Positions 2,891 to 31,951 of a stretch of DNA of 32,000 nt are shown here, piece by piece (the stretch's first letter is position 1; each line of letters begins with the position of its first letter). The notes under the pieces are model-generated. The model did no database searches. It was not told the origin of the DNA and saw only the letters and a list, made by a program, of their open reading frames with translations. The position numbers and the translations under genes are program-made. Origin of the DNA: Nitrosospira multiformis ATCC 25196 (lineage in GTDB: Bacteria > Pseudomonadota > Gammaproteobacteria > Burkholderiales > Nitrosomonadaceae); the NCBI RefSeq assembly GCF_000196355.1, contig NC_007614.1, forward strand, positions 2,850,001-2,882,000, in the 5' to 3' direction.

Positions 2891-2900
2891 GATTTCAACT

Positions 2901-3995: not shown

Positions 3996-4074
3996 CCGTG
4001 TGAAATGCCCCGGGATTTACCAGACTCACCGAAGAGGACTATGACGTCGATAACTGGATTCGCGGCCTGTAAAC

Positions 4075-8821: not shown

Positions 8822-9135
8822 GATTTCGATGCTTCCTTGGAGTCGGTCGAATCGACAGGTTCCCCCAGGGGCTGACTCAAGGGTATGGTCTGGATACGCT
8901 TGGGGTCCGGCAAGCGCATCTGCAGCTGCCCCGTGGCAATTTTTTCAATACGGGCATGCGTTGCCCAGGTGCTTTGCTCAAGCTGCAACTGCCCCCATTC
9001 CTCCGCCAGCTGCCCCGCCAGTTGCTGCTCCTTTTCCAGTTCCACAAACAGCTTGCGCGCCTTGTGCTGTGAAGTCACAACACTCAGCGCGCAAGCGATG
9101 AGAATTAAGGTCAACAAAATATTTATTCTGATCAC
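8818..9135 (-). CDS. ftsL: Cell division protein FtsL
   Basis: 105 aa. A single N-terminal TM segment (INILLTLILIACALSVV) is followed by a coiled-coil-like region (LEKEQQLAGQLAEEWGQLQLEQS). It lies between rsmH and ftsI and overlaps the ftsI start by 4 nt. Confidence 0.85.
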   Translation of the reverse strand: MIRINILLTLILIACALSVVTSQHKARKLFVELEKEQQLAGQLAEEWGQLQLEQSTWATHARIEKIATGQLQMRLPDPKRIQTIPLSQPLGEPVDSTDSKEASKS

Positions 9136-9175
9136 ACCAACCTCTCATCAACCAAAAACGCGCAACGGAATTCGG

Positions 9176-11405: not shown

Positions 11406-13595
11406 TTATCTGCGCGTGGCCGATATGACGCCGGGGACGCCGGCTATCAGCCCGAGAACACGCTGCAATTGATCGACATTGCCAATCTTGATCACGAACT
11501 GCATGGTCGCATTCAGGTCGCCGCTATGGGCGCGGGTAGCGACTACATCAATTTTTTCGCGCGACAGAACACCCGAAATATCGCTCAGCAATCCTTGACG
11601 ATCCTGCGCCCGAATCTCCACCTCTACGGCGTAACTGGCATTTTTGGATAAATCCCATTGGGTACTGACGAGGCGCGCCCTGCCTTCTCCTGACAACCGG
11701 GCCACATTGGCGCAATTCGCCCTGTGGATGGTGATTCCCCGCCCACGGGTGACAAAACCAATGATGGGATCAGGGGGTACAGGCTTGCAGCACTTTGCCA
11801 GTACGGTGAGCAACTTGTCGACCCCGACGACGAGTATGTCTCCCTGCGGTTTCGAAGTGAGAGTCTGCTTTTTGATGACTGGCGTTTCGGGGCCGGGTAG
11901 ACCCGATTCTGTCTCCCCGCTCAAGAATGCCGATAGCTGGCGCGCATTGATATCACCCCTTGCAACGGCTGCAAGAAAGGAATCAAGTCTGGCAAATTTG
12001 AACTCCACTGCCAGCTTATCCAGGCTCATCGCAGTCATGCCATGGCGCTGCAGTTCCTTTTCCACCAAAGCCCGGGCTTGGGTGAGGGAAACAGTACGCA
12101 TTTCACTGCTGAACCATTGCCTCACTTTCGCCCGGGCGCGCTGGCTCCTGATATAACCCAATGCAGGGTTGAGCCAGTCGCGGCTGGGTCCCCCCTGCTT
12201 GGTCGAAATGATCTCCACTCTTTGCGCATTTTGCAGCGGGTAATCGAGGGGCACCATGACGCCATCCACCTTGGCACCGCGGCAACGGTGCCCCAGGTCG
12301 CTATGCACATGGTATGCAAAATCCACGGGAGTGGCTCCCTTGGGCAGCGCGATCACCTTTCCTTGCGGCGTCAGTACATAGACCGAATCTTCGAACAGTG
12401 CCACCTTGAAATGCTCAGCCAGTTCTCCCGCATCCTCGACATCATTCTTCCACTCCAGTATCTGCCTTAACCAGGCGATCTTTTCCTCATACCGCGCGTC
12501 CCGCTTTGCACCTTCCTTGTAGCGCCAATGCGCGGCGACACCCATCTCTGAATGACGGTGCATCTCATGGGTCCGGATCTGTACTTCGACCACTTTGTCT
12601 TCCGGACCGATTACTGCAGTATGCAACGACCGGTAGTCATTGCCTTTCGGCTTGGCAATATAGTCGTCGAACTCCTTGGGAATCGGCATCCAGAGGTTGT
12701 GCACCAATCCCAATGCCGCGTAGCAATCCTTGACTTCGTCCACGAGAATGCGAACGGCCCGGGTATCCTGGATTTCCTTGAAATCCACACCCTTGCGTTT
12801 CATTTTTCTGTAAATGCTGTAAATGTGCTTGGGGCGTCCTGTAATTTGAGCCTTGATCCCCGCGTGACCCAGTTCGTTTTGTAACCTGTCAACCACCAAC
12901 GCGATATATTGTTCCCTGCTGCGGCGAGTCTCCTCCAGCAACGTGGCGATTTTTTTATAACGTTCGGGCTCGGTGATCCGAAACGATAGATCCTCCAGTT
13001 CCCACTTCACTTGCCATAACCCCAGGCGATTGGCGAGAGGCGCGAAAATATTCAAAGTGACCTCAGCGGCCTCCCATCTTCCGGCAACGTTGCGGGCAGC
13101 AACGTAGCGCATCGTCTGCAACCGGTCGGCCAGGGCGATGATCACCACGCGGATGTCTTCCGCCATTGCGAGCAGCATCTTCCTCAATGCTTCAATCTGA
13201 GCACTGCCATTCCCGATATTGTCTGTGCTGTTTGCAGATCGCAGCACCTGGATTCGGCCGACGCGCCTCACACCTTCCACGAGATGAGCGACTATTGGAC
13301 CAAAAGCGGTTGCCAATTCTTCTTCATACCCCTCCAGATACTCCGGAACTGCATGAAGCACTCCTGCTGCCAGTGTATCGCTGTCCACGCGCAGTCCCGC
13401 GAGAATCGCCGCGAGTCCATCTACATGCGAAGAGAGCAATTCACCGTTAGGCAGGCTTTTATCCATATACAGGGGTTCACAAAAAACCTGTGCCTCCCGG
13501 AGCAGATCGATTTCTGTCGGGGAGAAGATCGAACCCGGGGAATGGAGCCGGAAAGGTCCGTCCCCTTTTCCGGAAATGAGGGAGGGAGCGCTCAT
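11406..13595 (-). CDS. relA: GTP pyrophosphokinase, RelA-type long RSH ((p)ppGpp synthetase with degenerate hydrolase domain)
   Basis: 729 aa. Synthetase motifs are present (DYIAKPKGNDYRSLHTAV, EVQIRTHEMH), as are a TGS region (VYVLTPQGKVIALPKGATPVDFAYHVHSDLG) and a C-terminal ACT-like domain. The position of the SpoT HD motif reads LHAVPEY instead of LHDxxEDT. Confidence 0.9.
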   Translation of the reverse strand: MSAPSLISGKGDGPFRLHSPGSIFSPTEIDLLREAQVFCEPLYMDKSLPNGELLSSHVDGLAAILAGLRVDSDTLAAGVLHAVPEYLEGYEEELATAFGPIVAHLVEGVRRVGRIQVLRSANSTDNIGNGSAQIEALRKMLLAMAEDIRVVIIALADRLQTMRYVAARNVAGRWEAAEVTLNIFAPLANRLGLWQVKWELEDLSFRITEPERYKKIATLLEETRRSREQYIALVVDRLQNELGHAGIKAQITGRPKHIYSIYRKMKRKGVDFKEIQDTRAVRILVDEVKDCYAALGLVHNLWMPIPKEFDDYIAKPKGNDYRSLHTAVIGPEDKVVEVQIRTHEMHRHSEMGVAAHWRYKEGAKRDARYEEKIAWLRQILEWKNDVEDAGELAEHFKVALFEDSVYVLTPQGKVIALPKGATPVDFAYHVHSDLGHRCRGAKVDGVMVPLDYPLQNAQRVEIISTKQGGPSRDWLNPALGYIRSQRARAKVRQWFSSEMRTVSLTQARALVEKELQRHGMTAMSLDKLAVEFKFARLDSFLAAVARGDINARQLSAFLSGETESGLPGPETPVIKKQTLTSKPQGDILVVGVDKLLTVLAKCCKPVPPDPIIGFVTRGRGITIHRANCANVARLSGEGRARLVSTQWDLSKNASYAVEVEIRAQDRQGLLSDISGVLSREKIDVVATRAHSGDLNATMQFVIKIGNVDQLQRVLGLIAGVPGVISATRR

Positions 13596-13681: not shown

Positions 13682-16081
13682 TTAAAGCGTTGCTGAATCG
13701 TGCCAATAACGCATCCGCCGAACGCGCCACCGCTCCACGGCAAGGTCGTTACCGCCAAAGCGCAGCAATATGGCACCATCGATATCGCTGCGCAACAATC
13801 TGCTTCCCACCGCTCGATACCGCTCCGCAACTTCCTCTTTTGGATGGCCAAAACGGTTGCGATAACCTACGGTAAATACTACCCACCGCGGATTCACCTT
13901 CCGCACGAACTCCTCGGTGGAAGAAGTTTTGCTGCCATGATGAGGAGCGATCAATACCGTTGAGGAAAGCGCCTCCCCATAACGCTTGAGCAATTGATAT
14001 TCGGATTTTTTCTCGATATCCCCCGGCAGAAGCACGCTTCCGTGCCATGTGGTAATTTTCAACACGCAACTCAAGGCGTTACTCTTGAGGCGAAGATCAT
14101 TGTAGCTCTCTTCCAGGGGATGAAGCATGTCGAAGCGAACGCCATCCCATTCCCACGACTGCCCCGCCTTGCACCGGCGCTTGTTGAGAGCAGCCTGTTG
14201 TATGGGATGATCCTCGCCCAACGACGAGACGAGCCATTCGACGGGTACTGCTTGCAGCACGGACAACCCTCCGCCGCTATGATCCGAATCGGCGTGTGTG
14301 ACGATCATTGCATCGAGATGCCTTATCCCTTCCCCGCGGAGAAATGGAACGATGGTGCGGCTGCCGCTATCGGCTTCGGACGTAAAGGCAGGGCCCGTAT
14401 CGTAGAGCAGCGTGTGATTTTCCGTACGCGCCAGGACCGCCAGTCCCTGCCCAACATCCAGCACGGTCAGCCACAACTCTCCCTGCTCCGGTTTTGGGAG
14501 AGGCAGCAGAAACAGCGGCAGCAACGCGACGAGACCAAGCCAACGAGCAGGGAAACCGGTACCAAGGCCGAGCTGCCAACCCCATTTCCCAGGCAACAGC
14601 GTCCAGAAAATGCCCGCCGTCCCCACGGCTACTGCCCAGAAAGGCGGCGCCTGCTGGCTCCAGACGGCCTGAGGCGCATTGCTCAGCCATTCCATTACGG
14701 TCATGCAACCATCCAGCGCTGCATGTGCCGGTACCAACAGAAAATCGAGGGGCGGCAGGGTTGCGAGCAGGGCCAGCGGCACCACGACAAGACTCACCAG
14801 TGGAATCGCCACCGCATTGGCGATTGGGGAAACCAGCGATATTTGCTGAAACATCGCCAATAAAAGAGGTATCAGGCCCAGGGTTATGGCCCACTGCACC
14901 GTTGTCCAACTACTCAGCCAATGCGGCCTGCCAACGCGGCCGACAGATACCAGCATGATGACCGCGATGGCGCCAAAGGATAACCAGAAGCCGGGTGAAA
15001 GCACTGCCCATGGATCGAGAGCCACCACTGCAAGCAATGCCCAGGCCAGGACTGTGGTCATGGCAATGGAACGATCAAGCCATAGGGTAACGGCGACCGC
15101 GGTGAGCATATAGAGCGTGCGTTGTGCCGGAATCGCAAAACCGGCCAGCAGCGTATAACCGAGCGCGGCCACCAGCCCGGCTATGACTGCGGCTTTCCTG
15201 GCTGGCAACCGCAGCGTCAAATGATAGCTTCTGCGCCATAGCCAGTATGCCATCGTAAACACAAGCCCCGACAGCATGGTGATATGAAGGCCGGATATGC
15301 TGACGAGATGGTTTATCCCCGTCCGCGTGAATACCTGCCACTGCTCGTGTGGAATCGCCCGTTGATCCCCCACCGCCAGCGCAACGAGGGTACCGGCATA
15401 AGCCTGATAGGGCAGCGCGGCAAGGAAATTATCGCGGATATCCTGGCGCAGACGCTCGACCTGATAAGCGGGACGTCCCACCACTTTCTCCAGGCGTATA
15501 TTTTCGTCATCCTTGCGCACATAGCCTGTGGCCCCAATGTTGCGCTCCAGCGCCCACTGCTCGAAATCGGAAGCATGCGGATTGGCGGTTCCATGGGGGC
15601 GCTTGAGCCGTGCAGTAAGCCGCCAGCGTTCCCCGGCATTGAGGGGAGGTGTTGAAGGTCCTGGCATAAAGCCGCTTCCGCGCTCCTTATACCAGGAAAG
15701 AGAAAGACGGGCAGGCACGATTGCACCTTCCGTCAACACCTGCTCAACATCGAAAGTAAAGCGCACACTGGTCCTGCCGGTTTGCGGCAACTCCGCAACC
15801 ACGCCAATTACCTGGATATCTCTCCCTTCCCACTCGGGCAGGAGCGCATCGTTCAAGCGCCATTGCGCAAAAGCAGTCGCCCAGTAAAAACCTGCTCCCA
15901 GGAAAAGGCAAACCCAAAGCATTTTGCCGATCCGAGCAAAAACAGGGGCACGGCAGGAAAGCAGCAGAATTCCACACGCCATGCCGGGGAAGAGAGCCCA
16001 CGCACCTGCAAGCGCTGGCAGCACTGGCTGCTGTTGCAGCAGCACCACCCCGGCAACAAATGCCAGAATACAAAGTCGCAT
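13682..16081 (-). CDS. comEC: DNA internalization-related competence protein ComEC/Rec2
   Basis: 799 aa. It has an N-terminal TM plus OB-like region, a central polytopic competence domain, and a C-terminal metallo-beta-lactamase domain (LTVLDVGQGLAVL, THADSDHSGG, IAPHHGS). Confidence 0.9.
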   Translation of the reverse strand: MRLCILAFVAGVVLLQQQPVLPALAGAWALFPGMACGILLLSCRAPVFARIGKMLWVCLFLGAGFYWATAFAQWRLNDALLPEWEGRDIQVIGVVAELPQTGRTSVRFTFDVEQVLTEGAIVPARLSLSWYKERGSGFMPGPSTPPLNAGERWRLTARLKRPHGTANPHASDFEQWALERNIGATGYVRKDDENIRLEKVVGRPAYQVERLRQDIRDNFLAALPYQAYAGTLVALAVGDQRAIPHEQWQVFTRTGINHLVSISGLHITMLSGLVFTMAYWLWRRSYHLTLRLPARKAAVIAGLVAALGYTLLAGFAIPAQRTLYMLTAVAVTLWLDRSIAMTTVLAWALLAVVALDPWAVLSPGFWLSFGAIAVIMLVSVGRVGRPHWLSSWTTVQWAITLGLIPLLLAMFQQISLVSPIANAVAIPLVSLVVVPLALLATLPPLDFLLVPAHAALDGCMTVMEWLSNAPQAVWSQQAPPFWAVAVGTAGIFWTLLPGKWGWQLGLGTGFPARWLGLVALLPLFLLPLPKPEQGELWLTVLDVGQGLAVLARTENHTLLYDTGPAFTSEADSGSRTIVPFLRGEGIRHLDAMIVTHADSDHSGGGLSVLQAVPVEWLVSSLGEDHPIQQAALNKRRCKAGQSWEWDGVRFDMLHPLEESYNDLRLKSNALSCVLKITTWHGSVLLPGDIEKKSEYQLLKRYGEALSSTVLIAPHHGSKTSSTEEFVRKVNPRWVVFTVGYRNRFGHPKEEVAERYRAVGSRLLRSDIDGAILLRFGGNDLAVERWRVRRMRYWHDSATL

Positions 16082-17052: not shown

Positions 17053-17730
17053 TCACACGGTCAGGAGGCCATCCTCCAGATGCAGGGTTCGGCCGGCCTT
17101 TCTGGCGAGATCGGGATCATGTGTGACAATGACAAGGCTCGCGCCAGCATCATGATTGAGCTCGAGCATCAGATCGAACACTTCTCCCGCGGTGCGCCGG
17201 TCGAGATTGCCCGTAGGTTCGTCCGCAAGCACGCAGGCTGGACGGGTCACCAATGCACGCGCCACGGCAGCCCGCTGCCGCTCGCCTCCCGAAAGCTCGC
17301 CAGGAGTGTGCGTCAGCCGATGTCCCAGACCCACCTGCTGCAGGACTTCGCGGGCGCTTTCGTAGGCCTTGGCCTTGGCCATACGACGGATCAGAAGCGG
17401 CATGGCCACGTTTTCCAACGCGGTAAACTCGGGCAGCAGATGATGGAACTGATAAACGAAACCGAGTGACCTGTTACGCAACTCGCATCTCTCTGCTTCA
17501 CCCATGCCAGCAATTTCATGGCTCAGGATGCGAATTTCCCCGCCGGTAGGAACATCGAGACCTCCGAGCAGGTGCAGTAGCGTGCTCTTTCCCGAGCCGG
17601 ACGCGCCGACGATGGCGACGGTATCTCCCTTTCCCACCTTCAGGTCTATTCCCATCAGGACCGGCACCTCGATCTGGCCTTGATAATAGCTCTTCCGCAG
17701 GTTGCGGCAGGAAATGATATTGTCACTCAT
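17053..17730 (-). CDS. lolD: Lipoprotein-releasing ABC transporter ATP-binding protein LolD
   Basis: 225 aa with Walker [10 protein letters not shown], signature LSGGERQR and Walker [12 protein letters not shown]. It overlaps the upstream LolC/E-type permease gene by 8 nt. Confidence 0.9.
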
Positions 17731-18967
17731 ACCGCAGCGCCTCGGCCGGATTGATCTTTGAAGCGCGATAGCTCGGGTAGAGTGTTGCCAGCAGTGTCAA
17801 CACGAAGGAAACGATGGCGACGGCAATCACGTCATCGAACTGGAGGTCGGAGGGAATTTCGCTGATGACGTAGACTTCGCTGGACAGGAACTGCACGCTG
17901 AACAACCGCTCTATCATCGCAATGACCGCCTCCACATTGTAGGCAAGCAACACGCCGCCGATGACCCCCAATGCGGTACCGACCACCCCGATCCAGGTTC
18001 CCTGCACGATAAAGATTTTCATGATGCTGCGCGGACTCGCACCCAGGGTGCGCAATATCGCAATATCCGATTGCTTGTCCGTCACGGCCATCACCAATGT
18101 GGAGACAATATTGAACGCCGCCACTGCGATGATCAGTGCAAGAATGAGAGACAGCATGCGTTTCTCGATCTGTATGGCCCGAAAATAATTGGCGTGTTGG
18201 CGAGTCCAGTCGCTGATATAGACATCGCTGGAAATCAGCGGCACGAGCTCACGCGCGACTTGCGGCGCCTTGAAAAGATCATGCAACTTGAGGCGCACGC
18301 CTGATACCTGGTTTTCCATGCGATACAGCTTTTGTGCATCTGCCAGATGGATGAGCACGAGCCCGGAGTCGTATTCGAAATGGCCCGCTTCGAATATCCC
18401 GATAATCGTGAACTGCTTGAGGCGCGGAATGATCCCTGCAGGCGTCACCTGTCCCTGTGGCGAGATCAATACGATCCTGTCACCCGTAAAAACCCCCAGC
18501 GAGCGTGCCAGCTCGCGGCCGATGACTATACCGAACTCTCCCGGCGCCAGATTTTCCAGTCTGCCGTCTATCATCATCCGTCCGAGATCTGCCACGTGAT
18601 CCTCCATGCCAGGCAGGATGCCTCGCACGGCCACACCGCTCACGGCCTGATCGAACGACACCATCCCCTGTGCGCTGATGTAGGGTGCAGCGGCCTCCAC
18701 CTCGGGATGCCTGCGCGCTTCTTCGGCAACTTTTCGCCAATCCGTCAGCGTACCCTCCACGCCGCTCACCTGGATATGGGACGCGACACCGAGGATGCGC
18801 GAGCGGACTTCCTTCTGAAATCCGTTCATAACCGACATAACGGTAATGAGCGCTGTCATCCCAAGCGTAATACCGAGCAAGGAAATGAGGGAAATGAACG
18901 AGATGAAGTGATTGCGGCGCTTGGCGCGGGTGTAACGCAAACCGATGAAGAGTTCGTACGAGGACAC
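17723..18967 (-). CDS. lolC: Lipoprotein-releasing system transmembrane subunit, LolC/LolE family
   Basis: 414 aa with MacB/FtsX-type topology: TM1, a large periplasmic domain, then three C-terminal TMs. It has a typical LolC/E N-terminus ([32 protein letters not shown]) and is paired with lolD. Only one permease gene is present here. Confidence 0.9.
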
Positions 18968-21854: not shown

Positions 21855-22283
21855 TCAGACACATTCGGCACACAAGCCTTTAACAGTCAACTCAACTTCC
21901 CGGGAACGATAACCCGCCGGCAGGACAAATTCGTGCGTAGTCTCGACCTCATTGAGACAAACCACCTTTGTGCAACGCAAGCATTCAAAGTGGGCATGTT
22001 GCTGCGAATGTTCGTGAAGGTTGGCACGAAAACGCCAGACTCTATCCGCACTCACCACCCGATGCACAAAGCCTTTCTCATTCAGCCACTCCAGCACCCG
22101 ATAGAGCGTAACCCGATCAAACCGATGTTCGCCCTTCAATCGCTCTTCAATTTCGTGATGCGTGACAGCTCGCCGCTCCGACAGTAGCATGGCAAGGATA
22201 TGAATCCGTCCGGGAGTGATACGCTCCCCGCGGTGACGGATCATCTCTTCGGCTTTTTTCTGAAGATCAATCAAAAAATGCAT
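21855..22283 (-). CDS. Fur-family metalloregulator (Zur-like, metal specificity unknown)
   Basis: The track ORF (201 aa from 22460) is trimmed to M60 at 22283, giving 142 aa. The sequence is MHFLIDLQKKAEEMIRHRGERITPGRIHILAMLL...THHEIEERL...DRVTLYRVLEWLNEKGFVHRV...HAHFECLRCTKVVCL...GLCAECV. This gives a winged-helix N-domain plus HxHxxCxxC and C-terminal CxxC, typical of the Fur family. The discarded 59-aa extension would overlap the divergent gene start. Confidence 0.85.
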   Translation of the reverse strand: MHFLIDLQKKAEEMIRHRGERITPGRIHILAMLLSERRAVTHHEIEERLKGEHRFDRVTLYRVLEWLNEKGFVHRVVSADRVWRFRANLHEHSQQHAHFECLRCTKVVCLNEVETTHEFVLPAGYRSREVELTVKGLCAECV

Positions 22284-22296
22284 TTGTGGTGTAGTT

Positions 22297-22311
22297 TGCA
22301 ACAGAGTTGCA
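22297..22311. promoter_or_regulatory. Perfect inverted repeat TGCAAC-aga-GTTGCA, candidate operator
   Basis: TGCAAC is at 22297-22302 and GTTGCA at 22306-22311. The repeat lies 14-28 nt upstream of the Fur-family start codon and 3 nt downstream of the candidate -10, in the 136-bp divergent intergenic region. Confidence 0.4.
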
Positions 22312-22314
22312 TTT

Positions 22315-22343
22315 ACTATAACTGAAAAGGCAAGCATTTGCAA
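22315..22343 (-). promoter_or_regulatory. Candidate sigma70 promoter of the Fur-family gene: TTGCAA-N17-TATAGT
   Basis: On the minus strand, -35 TTGCAA is at plus 22338-22343 and -10 TATAGT is at plus 22315-22320, with a 17-nt spacer. Hexamer match only. Confidence 0.35.
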
Positions 22344-22419
22344 TCGCGTGCGTCGAGATCCGCATGCATGGCATTGCCTTTGCAGTGCATTGGTGGCAGG
22401 ACAGTTGTAACAGGTAACG

Positions 22420-23781
22420 ATGAAACCAGGACGCGTCCTTTTTTTACTGCTTGCGGGCATGCTCGCCTATATCATTTCTGGATGCTCGCCCGCTTCCGCA
22501 GCGCCAACGCATAAGGGAACGCCCTCCAATTATCGAGGACTACTGAAGGAACTCAAGCCGGGCGACCACCTGCAACTCGCGCCAGGAGATTATAAGGAGG
22601 GATTGCCAGTCCACCATCTTCATGGAACCCCGGATGCACCCATCACGATTAGCGGAGCCAGTGAAAAAAATCCCCCAGCCTTCCGGGCGCGACCGGGTCA
22701 CAACACCATCAGCATCCTCAATTCCGGTTACATCGTCCTTCGTGATCTGGACATCGAGGGCAACAACTTACCGGTGGACGGGGTAAAATGCGAGGGACAT
22801 GCCGACTGGGCACATCACATTACCCTTGAGGGGTTACGCGTGCGCGGTCATGGCAACAACCAGCAGACCGTGGCCATCTCCACCAAATGTCCCGCCTGGA
22901 ACTGGATAATACGCAAAAATATCATCGAAGGCGCAGGCACTGGGCTCTATCTCGGCAACTCGGACGGCCGCGCGCCGTTTGTGGCCGGTTTGATCGAGCA
23001 CAATCTGATCGTTGACACGATAGGCTACAACTTGCAGATCAAGCATCAGGCACCTCGTCCCGCGCTGCCGGGAATGCCGCACGAACCTGGCACAACGATT
23101 ATTCGCCATAATGTTTTCAGCAAGGTAAATGGGGGAGCGAGAGAGTGGACCCGACCGAATGTACTGGTCGGCCACTGGCCTCTTACCGGCCCGGGATCAA
23201 ATGATCTTTATCTCATCTATGGCAATTTCTTTTATCAGAATCCGCACGAATCATTGTTCCAAGGCGAGGGAAACATTGCTTTGTACAATAACGTGTTTGT
23301 AAATCACTCTGGCGATGCAGTGCGCATCCAGCCTCACAATGGTACTCCTCGCGTAATCAGCGTGTTTTACAATACAGTGATTGCGCGACATACCGGTATC
23401 ACTTTGTCGACTGGAAAAGAAGACTTAACTGATCAGCACTGGATGGAAGGTAATGCCATTTTTGCCCGGATACCTTTAGCGGGCTACCCGACCAGGCGAA
23501 ATCTTGTTGGCAGATATCAGGCTGCGAGCGAATCTCTTATCAAGCCATTCGCGCCCCTGGGACAAATGAATCTTGCCCTGCTACCCGGCAAATGGCGCTT
23601 TCCTTCCATTGATTCCGGTCGGTTACGTCTATACCCGGACTCGGAAAAAGATTTCGACGGCGCGGTGGAAGATGTTCGTTTTGGTGCTTACGCTAATATA
23701 AAAAATAAGCCGGAACGCTGGATGCCGAAGCTGGAAATAAAGCCTGAATTTTACAGTGCCAAAAAACTTATGCAGAGGTAG
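22420..23781 (+). CDS. Lipoprotein with a right-handed parallel beta-helix fold (putative polysaccharide lyase/hydrolase, chondroitinase-B/PL6-like N-terminus)
   Basis: 453 aa. The signal sequence has a lipobox: MKPGRVLFLLLAGMLAYIISG|C. The N-terminus (LKPGDHLQLAPGDYKEGL...GTPDAPITISG) is typical of beta-helix carbohydrate-active enzymes. Asn/Gly-rich coils recur with period ~22-25 aa (IVLRDLDIEGNN, IRKNIIEGAGTGLYLGN, IEHNLIVDTIGYN, IRHNVFSK, IYGNFFYQN, LYNNVFVNHSGDA, VFYNTVIA, MEGNAIFA). Confidence 0.7.
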   Translation: MKPGRVLFLLLAGMLAYIISGCSPASAAPTHKGTPSNYRGLLKELKPGDHLQLAPGDYKEGLPVHHLHGTPDAPITISGASEKNPPAFRARPGHNTISILNSGYIVLRDLDIEGNNLPVDGVKCEGHADWAHHITLEGLRVRGHGNNQQTVAISTKCPAWNWIIRKNIIEGAGTGLYLGNSDGRAPFVAGLIEHNLIVDTIGYNLQIKHQAPRPALPGMPHEPGTTIIRHNVFSKVNGGAREWTRPNVLVGHWPLTGPGSNDLYLIYGNFFYQNPHESLFQGEGNIALYNNVFVNHSGDAVRIQPHNGTPRVISVFYNTVIARHTGITLSTGKEDLTDQHWMEGNAIFARIPLAGYPTRRNLVGRYQAASESLIKPFAPLGQMNLALLPGKWRFPSIDSGRLRLYPDSEKDFDGAVEDVRFGAYANIKNKPERWMPKLEIKPEFYSAKKLMQR

Positions 23782-23840
23782 ACTTTAGCCCTACAGCATC
23801 GAACACGTCGAACAAAAATACCTCTCTCTGAGCCACATCA

Positions 23841-26800
23841 TTGACTAACGCCACGAACTCGACAGCGCAATATCAGCTCAACACGTCATCGCTTGTTGGC
23901 CCTGTCCTGATCTATCTGGCGATTATCGTATATGGAAGCTTGCTTCCATTCCACTGGAATGGCCTCTCGCTTTCCGCCGCATGGTCGAATTTCCAGCATA
24001 TCCCGCTGTTGAAACTGGGAGTAGCCAGCCGTGCAGACCTGGTAGCCAACCTGCTTTTATATATCCCTTTCGGGCTGCTGCTCTGCGGTTGGCTGGTGGG
24101 AGAAAATCGGCAACCCCGGTTGATGTCGACCGGCATGCTGTTGTCGCTGCTGCTTTCATTGACAGTTGCGCTAGGCGTGGAATTTATCCAGCAATTCTTT
24201 GCTCCTCGCACCGTCTCGCTGAACGATATTTTTGCGGAGATTGCCGGCTCGATATTAGGGATTGCGCTCTGGCCTGTTATTGGGAAACACCTGACGCGTC
24301 TGCCCCAAACCATTGGCAATGGAGGAACACAGGCACGAGAGGGCATACTGGTCGCGTACGCCCTGTTGTATGCAGTACTCAGCTTATTTCCTTATGATTT
24401 TCTACTGTCCTTCGACGAGTGGCGGGACAAATTGGCCTCCGGTGCCGCCGGGTGGGTATTTGCGCCGAACTGCGGTGAAAAGTGCTTTTTACGACTCATC
24501 CCGGAGGCACTTCTGGTCGCGCCGCTGGCCGCGCTGATCTTTCGACAGCCCAGGCAACCCCCCCTGCCTTCCCTACTTCTTTCCGCAACAATTACGGGCG
24601 CAATACTGGGAGTTTTGATCGAAAGCCTGCAATTGACGATTGCGTCCGGCATCAGTCAGGGAGCTTCAGTCATCTCACGTGCAGCAGGCCTGGCGCTTGG
24701 AGCCGGACTGATACCGGTTGCCACGGGGGTGGATTGGCCCGCGCTGCGCCGGTACATCAACCCTGTACTGGCCCTGTGTATCCTCCCCTACCTGGGGGCG
24801 CTTGCGTGGTTGAACGGCTGGTTTTCGGGCGATCGACTGGGAGTATCCGAGGGTTTGGAGAAGCTTGGAGACATACACTTCGCACCGTTTTACTATCACT
24901 ATTTCAGTACTGAAACAGTCGCGCTTGCAAGCCTGTTATTTCAAGCTGCGCTCTATCTACCTATCGGGGCAGGCTTATGGCTCTGGCACTGGAGCAGTTT
25001 CCGGAGCGAGTGGCAACAAGACCGTCAACGGAGAACAGTCGTTGCTGGACTGGTTGCAGGAATAGTTGCATGTATTATTGAAGCCGGTAAGCTCTTCATT
25101 ACGGCGAAGCATCCAGACCCGACCAATATCCTGATAGCGGTGGCGGCAGCGATGGGAGCCTATCGGGTGCTCCATGCACTCTCTATCCCTCAGACTGACA
25201 CGCCGGCATCATCTGCGCGATTCAAGCCTGAGGAAATTGCGTCCCGCCATTATTTGACCCCGATTCTGGAGAAGTTTGCGGAAATCCCTCGGGCTGAGCA
25301 GCTTCTCTCGAAGGAACGTCCTCGCTGGACAGTGGCCGCCGGTGTCCTTGCTATCGTTTTCGCGACCTGGGCTGTGGTGACGACTCCGCTCAGCACAGGG
25401 TGGGTTTTTTTATCTCTTATCATATATGCAACATTGCTCTGGCGGCAGCCCGGTCTATGGCTCGTCTGCGTGCCCGCCTTGTTACCGCTACTTGATCTAA
25501 CGCATTGGACCGGCCGATTGTTCTGGACCGAGTTTGATACAGTGCTCCTGGTCACCCTGGGGGTAGGATATCTAAGGCTCGGCTCCAGATTGCCTCCGCA
25601 ACGTTCGTTGAGGAGATTCGGGCGCCTGCTGTTCTTCCTTTTTGTACTATCCGCAGCGATCAGCTTCGTCATCGGCTTATTCCCACTGGCGATACTCGAC
25701 CATAACGCCTTCTCGAGCTACATCAGTTCTTATAATGCGTTACGGGCGGGCAAAGGTTTGCTATTTGTTCTGGCTTTTATGCCTCTGCTTGCACTTCAAT
25801 GGGAAGAGCCGCTGCGCGCCACGAACCGTCTCGCTCTGGGAATGACATTGGGACTGGCAGGAACGGTGGCTTATGTATTATGGGAACGCGCTACATTTCC
25901 GGGACTTTTCAATTTTGAGGACGACTACCGCATCACCGGACCTTTCCCGGGCATGCATGTCGGTGGAGCTTATATCGAAGCCTTTCTGACCGCCACATTG
26001 CCATTCGTGGCACTTCTTGCATGGGAGCAACGCCGTGCCTGGGTTACGTTATTGGCGGTGGGTCTGTATGGCTTGGGAGGATATAGTGTGATGGTGACGT
26101 TCTCCCGGGGTGGCCAGGCGGCTTTTGCCTTGGGGAGCCTGGTTCTGCTGCTCGGCTTCTTGAAGCTTGCAGCCCGCGGGAATTCGCACCGCTTTTCCAA
26201 CATGGTTGCAGTGATTCTGATTGCCGGCGTTGCGACAGTCATTACATGGCCCATCTTCAGTGGGCAGTATAGCCAGACACGCTGGGCAATAGCCGAGCGG
26301 GACATGGACGTGCGCGCTGCCCATTGGGATGATGTCGTGAGCATTATTCAGAGGCAAAATGCGTCGCTTTTTGGCATGGGCCTGGGCTCGTTTCCAGCAG
26401 CCTATTTCTGGAACTCAAACGCACCCTCCCGCCCGGCCACTTATGGGTTCGTCAACGAAAACGGGAACAGCCTGTTACGACTCGGTAGTGGCGATCCTCT
26501 CTATTTTGAGCAAACCGTGGCAGTTGTGGCAGAACAATCGTATACGCTTGCAATGGATTTGCGCACGAAGACTGGAAATCCCATCCTGATTCCGGTGGTC
26601 TGCGAAAAAGCAATGCTTTATTCTTATACTTGCGCGAACCCGCCGCTACGAATTAATGCACCCGATAGGAACTGGTTTCATTTGGAGGTGCAAATTCATG
26701 CCAAGAATTTCGGACCACCGGGAAGCCGACTCCCAAGGCCCGTAATATTATCCCTCTACAATGGTGAACCTGGCACGGTAGTGGATGTGGACAACGTAAG

Positions 26801-27200
26801 GCTGCTGGATATCTCCGGAAAAAATCTGGTACGTAATGGCGATTTTTCGGATGGCATGCATCACTGGTTTTTTTCGACAGATAACTACTGGCCATGGCAC
26901 GTGGAAAATCTTTACCTGAGCGTTTTCTTTGAACAGGGCTGGTTCGGACTGCTCTGTTTCCTTGCGCTCATTGGCTATGCAATCGTACGATGGTTGCCGC
27001 GCGCCTGGAGAGATGATCCGCTGAGCCTGGTACTATGCGCATCGTTCACGGCCTTCCTCGCCGTTGGCGTCTTGAACAGCTGGTCAGACGAACCCCGCCT
27101 CAGTTTCCTGTTTTACCTGTTACTGATCGCGGGATTGATCGCCGAGGCGCCTTTTGTTCAGACAAGGCAGCACTCTGCCATGATGCGGAACAACCCATGA
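23841..27200 (+). CDS. 1119-aa polytopic membrane fusion protein: two VanZ-like modules plus an O-antigen ligase/polymerase-like (Wzy_C-type) domain with an inserted periplasmic domain
   Basis: The TTG at 23841 is the only start codon available after the in-frame TGA at 23829-23831. Module 1 (aa ~20-150) has DLVANLLLYIPFGLLL...ALGVEFIQQFFAPRTVSLNDIFAEIAGSILG, a VanZ-type signature. Module 2 (aa ~345-445) repeats the pattern: LFQAALYLPIGAGLWL...ACIIEAGKLFITAKHPDPTNILIAVAAAMGAY. The region aa ~500-1119 is TM-rich with FSRGGQAAFALGSLVLLLGF, RAAHWDD...LFGMGLGSF and ...WHVENLYLSVFFEQGWFGLL, which resemble O-antigen-ligase family motifs. Confidence 0.75.
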   Translation: MTNATNSTAQYQLNTSSLVGPVLIYLAIIVYGSLLPFHWNGLSLSAAWSNFQHIPLLKLGVASRADLVANLLLYIPFGLLLCGWLVGENRQPRLMSTGMLLSLLLSLTVALGVEFIQQFFAPRTVSLNDIFAEIAGSILGIALWPVIGKHLTRLPQTIGNGGTQAREGILVAYALLYAVLSLFPYDFLLSFDEWRDKLASGAAGWVFAPNCGEKCFLRLIPEALLVAPLAALIFRQPRQPPLPSLLLSATITGAILGVLIESLQLTIASGISQGASVISRAAGLALGAGLIPVATGVDWPALRRYINPVLALCILPYLGALAWLNGWFSGDRLGVSEGLEKLGDIHFAPFYYHYFSTETVALASLLFQAALYLPIGAGLWLWHWSSFRSEWQQDRQRRTVVAGLVAGIVACIIEAGKLFITAKHPDPTNILIAVAAAMGAYRVLHALSIPQTDTPASSARFKPEEIASRHYLTPILEKFAEIPRAEQLLSKERPRWTVAAGVLAIVFATWAVVTTPLSTGWVFLSLIIYATLLWRQPGLWLVCVPALLPLLDLTHWTGRLFWTEFDTVLLVTLGVGYLRLGSRLPPQRSLRRFGRLLFFLFVLSAAISFVIGLFPLAILDHNAFSSYISSYNALRAGKGLLFVLAFMPLLALQWEEPLRATNRLALGMTLGLAGTVAYVLWERATFPGLFNFEDDYRITGPFPGMHVGGAYIEAFLTATLPFVALLAWEQRRAWVTLLAVGLYGLGGYSVMVTFSRGGQAAFALGSLVLLLGFLKLAARGNSHRFSNMVAVILIAGVATVITWPIFSGQYSQTRWAIAERDMDVRAAHWDDVVSIIQRQNASLFGMGLGSFPAAYFWNSNAPSRPATYGFVNENGNSLLRLGSGDPLYFEQTVAVVAEQSYTLAMDLRTKTGNPILIPVVCEKAMLYSYTCANPPLRINAPDRNWFHLEVQIHAKNFGPPGSRLPRPVILSLYNGEPGTVVDVDNVRLLDISGKNLVRNGDFSDGMHHWFFSTDNYWPWHVENLYLSVFFEQGWFGLLCFLALIGYAIVRWLPRAWRDDPLSLVLCASFTAFLAVGVLNSWSDEPRLSFLFYLLLIAGLIAEAPFVQTRQHSAMMRNNP

Positions 27201-27277: not shown

Positions 27278-29119
27278 TCAAATCTGATCTCTCATGACCG
27301 CTGCGGAACTCACCGAAATAAAGTCGCACTTGAACGACTGGGTGTTGAGATCAACCCTCAGTCCGTTATCAGGTGAGCACGAGACGAAATTCAGGCTTTC
27401 AAGCACCTGCTGGGCCGGAATATTGCGCCCTGTGGGTCTGAAATTAACCCACAAACTCTGGGGCTTTTGCTCACGCGGTCTGTTCACCAGATAATTGAAG
27501 AAAGCCTGCTCAATGAATCTCCCCTGCACCCGGCAGGAGAGCATGAAATCTTCAATGCGTATCTCCTTCTCTTCGATTCGAACAATACAGAATCCAACAG
27601 CACCATAAGAACCGTAGTTATCCGAACAACGCAGCACGTATTTCTCTACTTCCTGATTCGCCAGAATAGGCAGAATCTCGCTCCTCTGGTACTTGCGCCC
27701 TGAGAAATTCAATTGGTTCGTGCGCTGGACAAGTTCGGACACACGTTCCAGATCATCATCCGTATAAAGATCGACAAAGAGCTTTATTTCGCATGCTGCC
27801 AGGAATCCGAGATAATCTGACCCAAACTGGGTCGCACTTTTCCTGCGCACGAATTCTTCGCGATAAAACTGGCTGCGTTTTCTCGCATCCTCATTGGTGG
27901 ACCCCTGATAGCGCGGATTCGAGAAAAGATCGGCGATCTTCTCTGCATTCACGCAGGTGACCCCCTTCAAGGCCCGTGATACTTCTTCCAGTTCGAATGG
28001 ATTGTCGTCGATGAAAGCAAAGGTATCGAGTCCTATATTGAGTTGCTCCGCTATTGCCTTGATATTTTCGCTCTTGGGAAGCCAGTTGATCTGAGGATAT
28101 AGAAAATAATCCGCCATACCCAATTCTTCCAGCCGGCGCCAGGCGCTGGATTCATCGTTCTTGCTTGCGATACTGAGCAGGATTCCCCGTTCGTCGAAGA
28201 AGCGCAGCAACTCGAGTACCTTTGGCCGCAAACCAACCCCTTCATTCTCGAGCAATATCCCGTCCCATAAGGTATTGTCGAGGTCCCACACCACGCACTT
28301 GATTTTCGGCTGACTGGAAATGTCTATCCTTGCGGCCTCGGCTCGAACTACGAAATCGGCAGTCAGAAATACCAGGCGTGCAGTACCCTCCCCATCCGGG
28401 ATAATGGCGATGTCAAACGGAAGGCCGCATTCCGTGATCCTCGAGAATTGTTCCCGCTGGAACTCGTGACGGGAATAACCGGGAGGCAATGTGACCGATG
28501 CCCGGAATGGGAGTGGAAGCTGAGCCGAGGAAAATTTGCCCCCTGGGCTGGCGACTGACATGCCCAGCTGCATGCGAACGGGAACATTCATCGGATTGTA
28601 TACTTCCAGCAGGAAAAGATTCGGCTGCTGTCTGGAATTGGAATCATTCCTTCGATGCAGCCAGCGCCCGAGCCGTTCGAGGAGCGTATGCTCCAGATAT
28701 GACCAGCGGCTGTCCCGCGTAACGCGCTGGACGAAGGCCCCGACAATATTAATCAGCGGTGCGGATAAATCGACCATGCGTTCGGTCCACAGGGCCACGC
28801 CGGAGGGCAGTAGCAGTGTATTACCCCGGGCCTCGATCTTGCCCCATTTCTTGAATGAAACCTCTGCGCCGTAGCCCCGCGCCGATGGAAAACGGGGATT
28901 GCGATACATCCCATACGTCAGGCGACGGCATCGCGTATCGGGCCGGCTCTGATATAGATCGCAACTTGCAAAGCAGCTCGGGGCTGCACATTCCACGCAG
29001 TGCTCACCCCACATGAGCAAGGACATTTGCTCGATATCGCGAACCGCTTCGTAAGACGATCGAGGAGCCAGCTCGCGATCCTCGTGCAACTGCTTTTCGT
29101 ATTTATCGAACTCGAACAT
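27278..29119 (-). CDS. FkbH-like HAD-IIIC superfamily protein with a C-terminal GNAT-like domain and a ~270-aa N-terminal Cys-cluster domain of unknown function
   Basis: 613 aa. HAD motif I is VVWDLDNTLWDG (D279/D281), motif II is LSIASKN, and motif IV is FIDDNPFE. These match the FkbH/HAD-IIIC pattern. The C-terminal segment (YVLRCSDNYGSYGAVGFCIVRIEEKEIRIEDFMLSCRVQGRFIEQAFF) looks like the acyltransferase-like domain of FkbH proteins. The N-terminal domain carries CVECAAPSCFASC-x10-C. Confidence 0.8.
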   Translation of the reverse strand: MFEFDKYEKQLHEDRELAPRSSYEAVRDIEQMSLLMWGEHCVECAAPSCFASCDLYQSRPDTRCRRLTYGMYRNPRFPSARGYGAEVSFKKWGKIEARGNTLLLPSGVALWTERMVDLSAPLINIVGAFVQRVTRDSRWSYLEHTLLERLGRWLHRRNDSNSRQQPNLFLLEVYNPMNVPVRMQLGMSVASPGGKFSSAQLPLPFRASVTLPPGYSRHEFQREQFSRITECGLPFDIAIIPDGEGTARLVFLTADFVVRAEAARIDISSQPKIKCVVWDLDNTLWDGILLENEGVGLRPKVLELLRFFDERGILLSIASKNDESSAWRRLEELGMADYFLYPQINWLPKSENIKAIAEQLNIGLDTFAFIDDNPFELEEVSRALKGVTCVNAEKIADLFSNPRYQGSTNEDARKRSQFYREEFVRRKSATQFGSDYLGFLAACEIKLFVDLYTDDDLERVSELVQRTNQLNFSGRKYQRSEILPILANQEVEKYVLRCSDNYGSYGAVGFCIVRIEEKEIRIEDFMLSCRVQGRFIEQAFFNYLVNRPREQKPQSLWVNFRPTGRNIPAQQVLESLNFVSCSPDNGLRVDLNTQSFKCDFISVSSAAVMRDQI

Positions 29120-29166
29120 GACGCCGATTTACCCCAATCATCCGTTACGTCGCTGAGAATGCGAAA

Positions 29167-29859
29167 TCATGTCCGGCGGCAAATGAATGACTTTCCCAAG
29201 GGCGCGTATGCCATATAAGGAATGAAGCATATGCCGCTCTCCTTCCGCAAAAAATCTGAAAGGGCTTTCTGCTCGCCCTGCTCCGGATCAGCCTTGTAGT
29301 TATAGAAATCGTCAAAGCAGACGATGGAGCCATTTACAAGGTACGGCTGGATAAAATCGAGTACCTCGACCGTGGAATCATAGAGGTCGCAATCGATATA
29401 GACGATCGCCGCTTTGCGTCCCGCGAGCCGCCGGCGCGTTGCGTCATTCAGACTCTCTCTGTAAAAACCTTCGACCAGCTCGTACTCGCAAGAACGAATG
29501 CCTCGCGATTTCAGAATCGACTCGAATTCGGGGCGACTGCAGGCAAACTGTCCTTTGTACCAGATGTTATCTGGATGGGCTCCGGTATCAGGTAATCCCT
29601 GAAAGGAGTCAAACCCCCATAATTTCATATCCTGCCTGCGATAGCGATGCTTCATCCTGTGCGCATAGCCAAAGGTTTTTCCTCTCCATAATCCGAATTC
29701 GAGGTAATCTCCGCAGACTTCATTGATCTTGATGAACTCAAAAGCCTGGCTCAACATTCCAAGCTCAGTCATACGATTATCGGACCGGTGATCCAGCACC
29801 TCCATCATGCGCGCGAACCACTCCATGTCTATAATTTTTTTTACAGCATTTTTTATCAT
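29167..29859 (-). CDS. TylF/MycF-family class I SAM-dependent O-methyltransferase
   Basis: 230 aa with motifs GDYLEFGLWRGKTF, LWGFDSFQGLP and AIVYIDCDLYDSTVEVLDFIQPYLVNGSIVCFDDF. These match the macrocin-O-methyltransferase (TylF) family pattern. No obvious Shine-Dalgarno was seen. Confidence 0.8.
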   Translation of the reverse strand: MIKNAVKKIIDMEWFARMMEVLDHRSDNRMTELGMLSQAFEFIKINEVCGDYLEFGLWRGKTFGYAHRMKHRYRRQDMKLWGFDSFQGLPDTGAHPDNIWYKGQFACSRPEFESILKSRGIRSCEYELVEGFYRESLNDATRRRLAGRKAAIVYIDCDLYDSTVEVLDFIQPYLVNGSIVCFDDFYNYKADPEQGEQKALSDFLRKESGICFIPYMAYAPLGKSFICRRT

Positions 29860-30050
29860 GATCTGAACAACGTCGATTTATAGCGTGAACTTTAAATTCA
29901 ATAGAACGGCGGAATTGGATGGTATCTCACTTATTTTTCCGGAGAACATGCATACCACCCGCATTTGCATGCTGCGCCAATGAGCGTCGGCAGTTATGAG
30001 ATCATTAAGCGTCGAAGCATATAAAGAGCACATTTCCGTCCCCTGTAAAA

Positions 30051-30992
30051 CTACCTTCCTGATCGCATCAGCCGTTTCAGGGACGCCTTGACACCTAGCT
30101 GTTCCAATTTGTCACCCGTGAATTTACTGAAATGATCAACTGCCCTTTGCGACTGGAGCAGACATATATTGCGCATATTAGCTAGAACAAAAAAAACGTT
30201 GGCGCACTGAACACTGTCAGTGGCAAACAGTTTTTTATGCTCTGATTGGCCCTCGGTGAAATCAAACAAGCGGAAAATTTTTTCGTCGAACAGGTACTCC
30301 AAAGCCAGCCATTGCAGAATCGTGCCTACTGAAAAATTCATATAGTCCGGATGGTATCCGAGATATGCGTAGAGGACGATTCCATTTGATATCGGACAGT
30401 AAAGATATGAGACGGGCCTATCTCGATGGAAAAGAAGGAACGCGCGAACGCGACCCTGTTGAGCCAGCCGCTCCATCTGCTCGCAGAATTCTGCGGAATC
30501 AGGCAGCCCCGCGTCGAGCAATCTTTCCTGGTAAGTTGTACTGGACACAGTGCGGGCCAGCCGAAAGAATTCGGCCATTTCGCCAGGAGACTTGTAGACT
30601 CTCCAAGAGATACTGCCACCGCAATGCTCTGTGTACTTCCGTATTTTGCGACTGATAGTCGAGCGTGTCTTGGAGGAAAACTTGCTCTTGTATTCCGCAA
30701 ACGACTGCTGCATATCAATGTAATAGCGGGGATACTGCGCGGGCACATAACACAGATAAGCGCCCTGCCTCCGTAGCACGGGCTGTGGTCCGGCGATGCG
30801 CAGCGATCTGAGCAGGAAGCCCTGGCTTCCTTCATGGAGGGGATCAGCGGGCGCCATTGGCTCGGCCACGGGGGGTGTTTCATCGTCAAGTCCCGCTTCC
30901 CGCACCTGTAACCACAACCTGGGGGCTAGCAAGGTCTTGTCACCCAGTTGTATCTTTATCGGCACCTGTTGACAATGCCATGCCTGATTCAA
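30051..30992 (-). CDS. GNAT-superfamily acyltransferase, Acetyltransf_6 (FemAB/CelD/BioF2-like) type
   Basis: The track ORF (356 aa from 31121) is trimmed to the TTG at 30992, giving 313 aa. That TTG follows AGGAGG with a 5-nt spacer and overlaps the upstream stop as TTGA. The sequence contains FAEYKSKFSSKTRSTISRKIRKYTEH...FLLFHRDRPVSYLYCPISNGIVLYAYLGYHPDYMNFSVGTILQWLALEYLFDEKIFRLFDFTEGQSEHKKLFAT, typical of this family. Confidence 0.72.
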   Translation of the reverse strand: MNQAWHCQQVPIKIQLGDKTLLAPRLWLQVREAGLDDETPPVAEPMAPADPLHEGSQGFLLRSLRIAGPQPVLRRQGAYLCYVPAQYPRYYIDMQQSFAEYKSKFSSKTRSTISRKIRKYTEHCGGSISWRVYKSPGEMAEFFRLARTVSSTTYQERLLDAGLPDSAEFCEQMERLAQQGRVRAFLLFHRDRPVSYLYCPISNGIVLYAYLGYHPDYMNFSVGTILQWLALEYLFDEKIFRLFDFTEGQSEHKKLFATDSVQCANVFFVLANMRNICLLQSQRAVDHFSKFTGDKLEQLGVKASLKRLMRSGR

Positions 30993-31951
30993 CGAAGCCT
31001 CCTGAGCAAACCCTGCTCGAGGATCCTGAATCCCGTTTTCCAGACCGGTGAGGTGAGTGGAGCGGGTTGCAGGGGAACAGACACAGGCATCAGGCCATGA
31101 AAACCCCGTACGCGAAAACAATCCCGATGCCGATCAAGGAAAGAACAGAGTTTATGAAAACGCTCTATTACAATTTCGTCCGGACGATCCATCGACGGGT
31201 TGAGCAATTCGAAATTGTGCGACAGGATAACAAAAGCTTTACGTCCGGACTCCAGCGACTGCCAGAGAAGACCCTCCATCTCCTGATAAGAACATGCAGT
31301 CAACTGGGCATGCCGCAATCCGCCCACGCCCCCGTCGAAGACCGTCATCGGATATTCGTACACACCTTCGCATTCGACGGGCTCCACCAAGGGCATTTCA
31401 GGACTGACACCGCTATCCTGTCCGAGCATGCTCGCGTTGTAACTGCTATCGAAAGCGATCTGGTTTACATTCAGGGCGCGCAACGTATCCCGGTTGAAGC
31501 CAAAACCTCCCGCACGAAATGCATTTACGCGCGGCGCTCCCGCTGATTCGATCAACAGCACTCCTGTCTGTATCAGGATTGTTTGTTCTTCCAGTGAAAA
31601 ATAGCGCAGATACTGTCTTTTGCGGCTCACATTGTCGAGCAATGGCTGGTTTGATTCGTCTACCCATTCGGTATGGAGATGAAGCTGTATTTCATGACCT
31701 TCTTCCCGAATGAGGCCGAGAATTTCCACCAGCGGATCAGGGCCAAACCGCGTCGAGAACAGGGGTTCAACAAAAAATACTCCGGTCAATCCATAGTCCC
31801 GCAACTGGCGCAACTGGTACGGCAGGCCATAATCTCCTTTACGGGTAGGACCATAGATATATCTCCGGAACGCTGCCGGGAATTTGGCGTCGAGGTCCTC
31901 CCAGCCATTGCACCATACCTCGACATCAACAGTAAGGAATACATCCAGCAT
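30989..31951 (-). CDS. Polysaccharide deacetylase-like protein (CE4/NodB-homology, DxE variant)
   Basis: 320 aa. The N-terminus MLDVFLTVDVEVW resembles the TVDVED start of EPS-locus polysaccharide deacetylases. It also has GHEIQLHLHTEW (His pair) and FRAGGFGF. It is translationally coupled to the downstream GNAT gene. The family call is by motif only. Confidence 0.65.
   Translation of the reverse strand: MLDVFLTVDVEVWCNGWEDLDAKFPAAFRRYIYGPTRKGDYGLPYQLRQLRDYGLTGVFFVEPLFSTRFGPDPLVEILGLIREEGHEIQLHLHTEWVDESNQPLLDNVSRKRQYLRYFSLEEQTILIQTGVLLIESAGAPRVNAFRAGGFGFNRDTLRALNVNQIAFDSSYNASMLGQDSGVSPEMPLVEPVECEGVYEYPMTVFDGGVGGLRHAQLTACSYQEMEGLLWQSLESGRKAFVILSHNFELLNPSMDRPDEIVIERFHKLCSFLDRHRDCFRVRGFHGLMPVSVPLQPAPLTSPVWKTGFRILEQGLLRRLR

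Follow-up and report, generated by a model that had tools for sequence, protein, structure and literature searches.

A fusion of three VanZ modules with a ligase-like Wzy_C domain at the edge of an exosortase A exopolysaccharide locus in Nitrosospira multiformis

VanZ proteins have been without a known biochemical function since the 1990s, and the covalent fusion of VanZ modules with an O-antigen-ligase-like domain raises the question of what such a combination could do in the cell. We analyzed a gene of this type in 32,000 nucleotides (nt) of DNA from Nitrosospira multiformis ATCC 25196 (contig NC_007614.1, positions 2,850,001 to 2,882,000; hereafter the window). The gene occupies positions 23841..27200 of the window on the forward strand, stop codon included, and its stop-free translation from a TTG start, taken from a listing of the open reading frames (ORFs), is a polytopic inner-membrane protein of 1119 amino acids (aa). 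We consider the chances slightly better than even that this protein is an intact inner-membrane enzyme with about 24 helices in a pathway of exopolysaccharide (EPS) assembly that is coupled to exosortase A (the XrtA/PEP-CTERM system). It most likely processes an undecaprenyl-diphosphate-linked exopolysaccharide at the periplasmic face, with ligase, polymerase and protein glycosylase modes being indistinguishable. That VanZ is conserved in fusion with a glycan transferase for undecaprenyl-diphosphate-linked donors points to where it acts, namely on head groups attached to polyprenyl, on the outer side of the inner membrane.

VanZ modules of the fusion protein

The N-terminal part of the protein contains three consecutive VanZ, or lipocone, modules. 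Module 1 (aa 16-160, 23886..24320 on the forward strand, as all parts of the gene below) comprises four long helices and a short linker helix, and it matches Pfam VanZ (PF04892) with 54 bits when the whole protein is searched and with 51 bits for aa 23-147 alone, above the curated cut-off of 30.1. Weaker partial matches to the same profile were found at around aa 220-292 and aa 361-441. When searched alone, the middle module (aa ~163-297, 24327..24731) reached 18 bits (E-value 0.0035) and the third module (aa 299-448, 24735..25184) 15 bits (E-value 0.04). Comparison of family sub-alignments by hhalign paired module 1 with aa 160-300 at 88% probability (E-value 3e-6, 119 columns) and with aa 300-450 at 47% probability (E-value 2e-4). 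We also built an AlphaFold2 model on 114 homologs (mean predicted local distance difference test score, pLDDT, 86.6; predicted template modelling score 0.69), in which the order H1, short linker helix, H2, H3, H4 occurs three times, at aa 16-160, 163-296 and 299-448, so that the four-helix membrane core of VanZ (H1-H4) is found in each module. A count of two modules was dropped for three on the Pfam segments, the hhalign repeats and this helix pattern. The preliminary description of the locus had seen the VanZ signature twice. Both motifs that it quoted exist, NLLLYIPFG/EFIQQFFAPRTVSLND at aa 70-129 and LYLPIGAG/IIEAGKLFITAKHPDPTN at aa 371-429, and the first and third modules are real, but the third is weak by itself and the better-supported middle module had been overlooked.

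Conservation was counted over the 114 homologs, which share 39-95% identity. N70, E114, Q117 and D129 of module 1 are present in all of them, and R64, D66, R123 and N128 are conserved too. The active-site pattern of VanZ-1 described in the lipocone study (Burroughs, Nicastro & Aravind, eLife 2025, PMC12419801), Asn in helix 2, E-x-x-Q in helix 3 and Asp in helix 4, is found in module 1, which, judged by the alignment, is the only module to retain it in full. Module 2 retains E261-x-x-Q264 and has Ser276 in place of the helix-4 Asp, and module 3 has E414-x-x-K417 together with D426 and carries N429 in place of the Asp, which 14 of the 114 homologs retain there. Near-invariant motifs are also present in the periplasmic loops, namely PYD and C211-x3-C215 in module 2 (the Cys pair is kept in 112/114) and PFYYHY in module 3. 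Whereas the text of the lipocone study refers to VanZ-i as 'inactive', both degenerate copies of this family keep near-invariant polar residues at equivalent positions.

The predicted cytoplasmic loops are rich in Lys and Arg, and the motif-bearing loops and both Cys pairs (the second pair lies in the insert described below) are predicted to be periplasmic. The positive-inside rule thus likely places the conserved polar residues of all four units on the periplasmic side. The three modules are connected to the ligase-like part by a basic, disordered linker (aa 449-494, 25185..25322), with pLDDT below 50 at aa 455-483 and eight Lys/Arg residues in the loop, which is predicted to be cytoplasmic. 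A two-gene version is found on a metagenome contig (L082, 1643-4971), where a VanZ protein of 464 aa is followed by a ligase-plus-insert protein of 645 aa; the genes overlap by ATGA, an AGGAA ribosome-binding site is present and the break between the two proteins coincides with the disordered linker. This arrangement supports a view of the VanZ part and the ligase part as two cooperating units.

Compared with VanZ-A of the glycopeptide-resistance operons (NF033125, cut-off 250), the protein scores far under the cut-off, and its locus has no van genes nearby and a Gram-negative EPS setting. Weak Pfam matches of the membrane helices to Rce1-like, SLATT_1 and HisKA_7TM were discarded as low-complexity hydrophobic matches.

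The ligase-like domain and its beta-sandwich insert

The second unit is a membrane domain of the Wzy_C type (O-antigen ligase/polymerase superfamily), which is present in two parts. The N-terminal part (aa 495-864, 25323..26432) matches Pfam Wzy_C (PF04932) at aa 745-856, covering profile positions 5-115 with an E-value of 5e-7, and the C-terminal part (aa 1014-1119, 26880..27197) contains the motif W-H1020-x-x-N1023 ... E1031-x-G-x-x-G1036 and the last three membrane helices. Because the Wzy_C profile resumes at aa 1014-1041 (profile positions 122-149), the beta segment between the two parts is an insertion within the Wzy_C domain. The ligase part has about 12 hydrophobic helices and a loop of 227 aa at aa 807-1033, as expected for a polytopic domain with a large periplasmic loop, and in the AlphaFold2 model a helical membrane domain follows the linker, with three or four final helices beyond the beta segment. 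R756, R814, R825, W829 and G845-x-G-x-G849 are invariant; H828 is listed as well (H828/W829). Most orthologs carry a precomputed PF04932 match, and one relative (P0261) reaches 38.9 bits. The profile searches back the assignment of both VanZ and Wzy_C to one polytopic protein, as had been proposed. The full ligase-like domain of 10-12 transmembrane helices that was said to follow the VanZ modules holds in its significant Wzy_C match and its helix count, but it is split by an insert that had been overlooked and scores just under the Pfam cut-off.

The insert (aa 865-1013, 26433..26879) lies in the large periplasmic loop and resembles the beta-sandwich of carbohydrate-binding modules (CBMs). It is modelled as an all-beta segment of roughly 150 aa with pLDDT mostly 86-96, and C921, C931, W945 and W1009 are invariant, the two Cys being taken to form a disulfide. 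Foldseek with the full model returned only beta-sandwich matches, with CBM16, CBM4 and CBM22 modules among them (probability 1.0, template modelling score 0.5-0.6, E-value 4e-3), and the profile search of the PDB returned only the CBM motif of 4mgq (E-value 0.014). Pfam matched neither a CBM nor any other family on aa 861-1030. The insert thus shares with CBM4, CBM16 and CBM22 the beta-sandwich fold and the motif 'DNV.L.D..G.NL..NG.F'; unlike them, it sits within a loop of a membrane protein, has no Pfam CBM match and is possibly permuted. The 'NGDFxxG..W' strand normally stands at the start of CBM4_9-type modules. Here it is located at the C-terminal end of the insert (aa 999-1013, 26835-26879), behind a 'VDVDNV' strand. 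The strand order may reflect a circular permutation that fits insertion into a loop.

These units could cooperate as follows. The Wzy_C domain would take an undecaprenyl-diphosphate-linked glycan already flipped to the periplasmic leaflet and hand it to an acceptor. In a polymerase mode, this acceptor would be the next lipid-linked repeat unit, and in a ligase mode a terminal one. The beta-sandwich would keep the polysaccharide chain beside the catalytic loop. The first VanZ module, by analogy with TelC and PTDSS1/2, might act on the polyprenyl carrier at its phosphate-linked head group, where it could, for instance, cleave or recycle the undecaprenyl diphosphate released as leaving group, and the two degenerate modules may offer docking cavities for the polyprenyl tails. 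The product of the gene directly upstream would probably trim or modify the same polymer.

The exosortase A locus and the competing readings

That upstream gene (22420..23781, forward strand) encodes a lipoprotein (MKPGRVLFLLLAGMLAYIISGC...) with a lipobox in its translation and a right-handed, alginate-lyase-like beta-helix (Pfam Beta_helix, 27 bits; 6kfn by phmmer, E-value 1e-4). It is co-directional with the fusion gene across a gap of 59 nt without a terminator-like site, and the two are probably co-transcribed. In 16 of 79 related loci, a lyase-like lipoprotein gene adjoins the relative of the fusion gene. The lipoprotein may be a partner enzyme on the same polysaccharide.

On the other side, four genes on the reverse strand (27278..31951) converge with the fusion gene at the edge of an XrtA/PEP-CTERM exopolysaccharide locus. 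They encode an FkbH-domain protein (27278-29119; TIGR01686, 242 bits), a TylF-type O-methyltransferase (29167-29859), a FemAB-like GNAT acyltransferase (30051-about 30965), assigned by Pfam and NCBIfam matches, and a 320-aa protein of unknown function (30989-31951). In the syntenic locus of N. multiformis Nl7 (L002) and in a further related locus (L001), the same strand continues with genes for an AsnB-like amidotransferase, a glycosyltransferase and exosortase A. The cluster member of this glycosyltransferase from L001 passes TIGR03088 (PEP-CTERM/XrtA) with 536 bits against a cut-off of 409, and in Nl7 exosortase A itself, which reaches 350 bits with TIGR03109 (cut-off 208), is encoded 8 kb downstream of the fusion gene. 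We counted XrtA markers in 79 fetched loci by similarity to reference neighbours that pass the NCBIfam cut-offs. Recurrent neighbours score above the curated cut-offs of the XrtA-system families TIGR03013, TIGR03100, TIGR03101, TIGR03098 and TIGR03088, at least one XrtA-system marker is present in 22 of the 79 loci, and some EPS gene in 38. The fusion gene is therefore found in an XrtA/PEP-CTERM locus, the setting of TIGR03097-type ligases.

Several observations weigh against placing the protein as an enzyme in this pathway. The neighbourhood is variable, with XrtA-system genes in 14 of the 41 loci that extend at least 5 kb on both sides, and in the window the fusion gene is convergent with the XrtA-side genes and thus outside their operon. 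The Wzy_C score of the protein is slightly below the Pfam cut-off of 31.7 (26.1 bits for the whole protein, 30.0 as a segment), although the E-value is significant. In the H-N motif of WaaL, the canonical His corresponds here to a variable Lys/Glu at position 1022, next to N1023, and the nearby H1020, present in 110 of 114 homologs, is replaced by Arg or Asn in the other four. Finally, the enzyme activity of VanZ proteins rests on predictions in the literature (PMC12419801).

This last point also speaks for the reading in which all three VanZ modules are non-catalytic and serve the transferase domain as a scaffold, a lipid-carrier binding platform or a regulatory sensor. It agrees with the absence of the helix-4 Asp from two of the three modules and with the existence of the VanZ unit as a separate gene in L082. 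We regard it as unlikely, yet as the most probable of the rival readings.

A classical O-antigen ligase of lipopolysaccharide (LPS) synthesis (WaaL), which would transfer O-antigen onto lipid A-core with the VanZ modules as accessories, is a distinctly less probable reading. The Wzy_C match, the name 'O-antigen ligase family protein' given to some homologs by their sources and the label 'WaaL-ligase' for the fused domain in the lipocone paper (PMC12419801) all agree with it. Like E. coli WaaL (PF04932), the domain is polytopic with a large periplasmic loop, shows an Arg after a membrane helix and contains G-x-G-x-G and N...E-x-G-x-x-G motifs. WaaL has conserved periplasmic Arg and His residues, which are R215, R288 and H338 in E. 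coli. The invariant R756 stands opposite R215, and no clear counterpart of R288 was found. However, the hhalign alignment to E. coli K-12 WaaL is weak and not significant (E-value 0.35-0.42), and profiles of the whole family or of the insert-less ligase helices returned no PDB match to a solved WaaL, the CBM motif being the only hit; Foldseek with a separate model of aa 486-866 (pLDDT 77) gave nothing meaningful. The target thus differs from WaaL in showing no detectable similarity to solved structures in the searches made, in a His position that is variable across the family and in its size, since the ligase part has about 620 aa, of which the beta-sandwich makes up 150, and E. coli WaaL only 419. 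We know of no description of a CBM-like insert in the catalytic loop of a WaaL. The genomic setting also argues against this assignment: no LPS core (waa) genes were found near the fusion gene, and its neighbours are of the EPS/XrtA type.

A bolder extension of the mechanism outlined above is a self-contained polymerase and carrier-recycling machine, in which the two degenerate lipocones would dock the polyprenyl tails of the lipid-linked donor and acceptor glycans, the insert would thread the chain as it grows and the intact VanZ-1 module would cleave or dephosphorylate the undecaprenyl diphosphate set free. We hold it to be rather improbable. If it were true, the VanZ activity would be that of an esterase for polyprenyl-(di)phosphate head groups, VanZ-mediated teicoplanin tolerance would be explained, and the missing polymerase or ligase of the XrtA/PEP-CTERM exopolysaccharides would be identified.

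A role of the Wzy_C domain as a PglL/PilO-like O-oligosaccharyltransferase, with the PEP-CTERM proteins sorted by exosortase A as its protein substrates, is very doubtful. XrtA and XrtA-system genes are indeed in the neighbourhood, and the protein shares superfamily and locus type with TIGR03097 (PEP_O_lig_1, 'putative O-glycosylation ligase, exosortase A system-associated'), which it matches weakly at aa 695-797 (E-value 6e-5). This match reaches only 22.2 bits against a cut-off of 188.1, and the TIGR03097 profile has 408 positions, approximately the length of a ligase alone. Neither the window nor L001 or L002 contains a gene for a PEP-CTERM protein, and a carbohydrate-binding-type insert would be more in keeping with a polysaccharide partner than with a protein as acceptor.

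The reading of the long ORF as an assembly or frameshift artefact fusing separate genes, a worry raised in the preliminary description, has a negligible probability and is already ruled out by comparative data, since the identical 1119-codon frame occurs in three N. multiformis genomes assembled independently and also in a Logan contig, full-length orthologs exist in hundreds of species and the junction itself is under purifying selection, even though one metagenome contig carries both halves as separate overlapping genes.

The coding length of 3357 nt is identical in N. multiformis Nl7 (94% identity to the gene), Nl18 (90%) and the independent Logan assembly. Compared with either Nl7 or Nl18, all parts of the gene have a ratio of nonsynonymous to synonymous substitution rates of 0.05-0.40, and by this measure each part is under purifying selection. 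Between the gene and its Nl18 ortholog (L004), synonymous divergence is 0.13 in module 1, climbs along the gene and reaches 0.56 in the beta-sandwich; in the comparison with Nl7 it is 0.04-0.21 without such a climb. The gradient in Nl18 suggests recombination inside the gene at the part predicted to face the glycan. The TTG start codon of the 1119-aa gene is unusual yet credible. It is preceded by an in-frame TGA (23829-23831) 9 nt ahead, it is the only ATG, GTG or TTG before the first membrane helix, with the next Met at about residue 95, and it is unchanged across five orthologous loci. The ribosome-binding candidate is only a weak GAG, 9-11 nt upstream, in line with the earlier statement that the TTG is the sole usable start behind an in-frame stop and lacks a clear Shine-Dalgarno sequence. 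Codon 5 is ACG in the window and an in-frame ATG in Nl7 and Nl18.

Distribution, prior knowledge and further features of the window

The architecture proved to be widespread. A word-indexed search found more than 110 full-length homologs with 39-95% identity, which their sources label as 'VanZ family protein', as 'O-antigen ligase family protein' or with both names, and a scan with one genome per species found a relative in at least 569 species, which among the matches listed belong mainly to the Nitrosomonadales, Burkholderiales, Rhodocyclales and Methylococcales. When 1.84 billion representatives were searched exhaustively with a profile, 2736 proteins matched at E-values of 1e-30 or lower; among the best 150, nearly all have a length of 1050-1170 aa and matched end to end in one stretch. 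Some relatives depart from the common layout. P0126 (1374 aa) has a C-terminal Peptidase_M48 domain, and P0260 (1539 aa) has additional sequence ahead of the ligase part. P0261, P0262 and P0267 (about 1300 aa) do not match the family profile before about position 280-300; P0261, the one of these three on which Pfam was run, has just one VanZ stretch, and its Wzy_C match exceeds the cut-off.

The lipocone study had already catalogued the combination of VanZ-1, VanZ-i and WaaL-ligase and had drawn the inference on VanZ function. It reports 'direct domain fusions' of VanZ-1 with exopolysaccharide genes, including a WaaL-like transferase, and its network source data list WaaL-ligase with N-terminal VanZ-i 118 times and with N-terminal VanZ-1 62 times, along with 834 cases of VanZ-i directly after VanZ-1 and 406 of one VanZ-i after another (PMC12419801). 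VanZ is predicted there to act on lipid-carrier-linked head groups in the outer leaflet, with a chemistry predicted by analogy with TelC and PTDSS1/2. The present protein resembles those fusions in its order, an active VanZ-1 followed by inactive VanZ copies and a WaaL-like domain, and in its predicted site of action. The study does not discuss the fusion family individually, its network file lists nothing C-terminal to WaaL-ligase, and the paper mentions neither exosortase nor PEP-CTERM. In the literature searched, we found no combination of VanZ with exosortase, no report of the beta-sandwich insert, the XrtA-locus association or the lyase-like lipoprotein partner, and no experimental study of the fusion family.

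The architecture is thus common, named by sequence sources and catalogued, an outcome that the preliminary description had itself named as a refutation. Its idea that the fusion gives a functional handle on VanZ had already been used in the lipocone study. Because the VanZ-site argument is already in the literature, the value of the fusion family is practical. With one intact VanZ site beside two altered ones and a polysaccharide-binding-type insert, the family is a reasonable experimental entry point and not a new discovery. Its carriers include cultured methanotrophs and nitrifiers, in which it lies next to exosortase-linked EPS genes relevant to floc and biofilm formation. Some of these methanotroph and nitrifier carriers are genetically tractable, with Methylotuvimicrobium and Methylomicrobium (loci L027 and L046) as examples.

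Among the neighbouring genes, those for the FkbH-domain and TylF-type proteins are common only to close Nitrosospira relatives. Their adjacency hints that the exopolysaccharide of this strain is decorated in an unusual way, with a modified sugar or a glyceryl group. The remainder of the window contains the division and cell wall (dcw) cluster on the reverse strand (FtsW, MurD, MraY, MurF, MurE, FtsI and MraW; 304-10126), an ordinary housekeeping setting, followed by RelA/SpoT (11406-13595), ComEC (13682-16081) and a LolD/LolC-like ABC pair of a LolCDE-like transporter (17053-18967). A TonB-dependent receptor and a Fur-family regulator are also encoded upstream of the fusion gene. The mechanically called ORFs of this regulator (21855-22460, reverse strand) and of the FemAB-like protein (30051-31121, reverse strand) overlap their neighbours, and the gene calls on an identical contig are shorter, at 142 aa and 304 aa, respectively.

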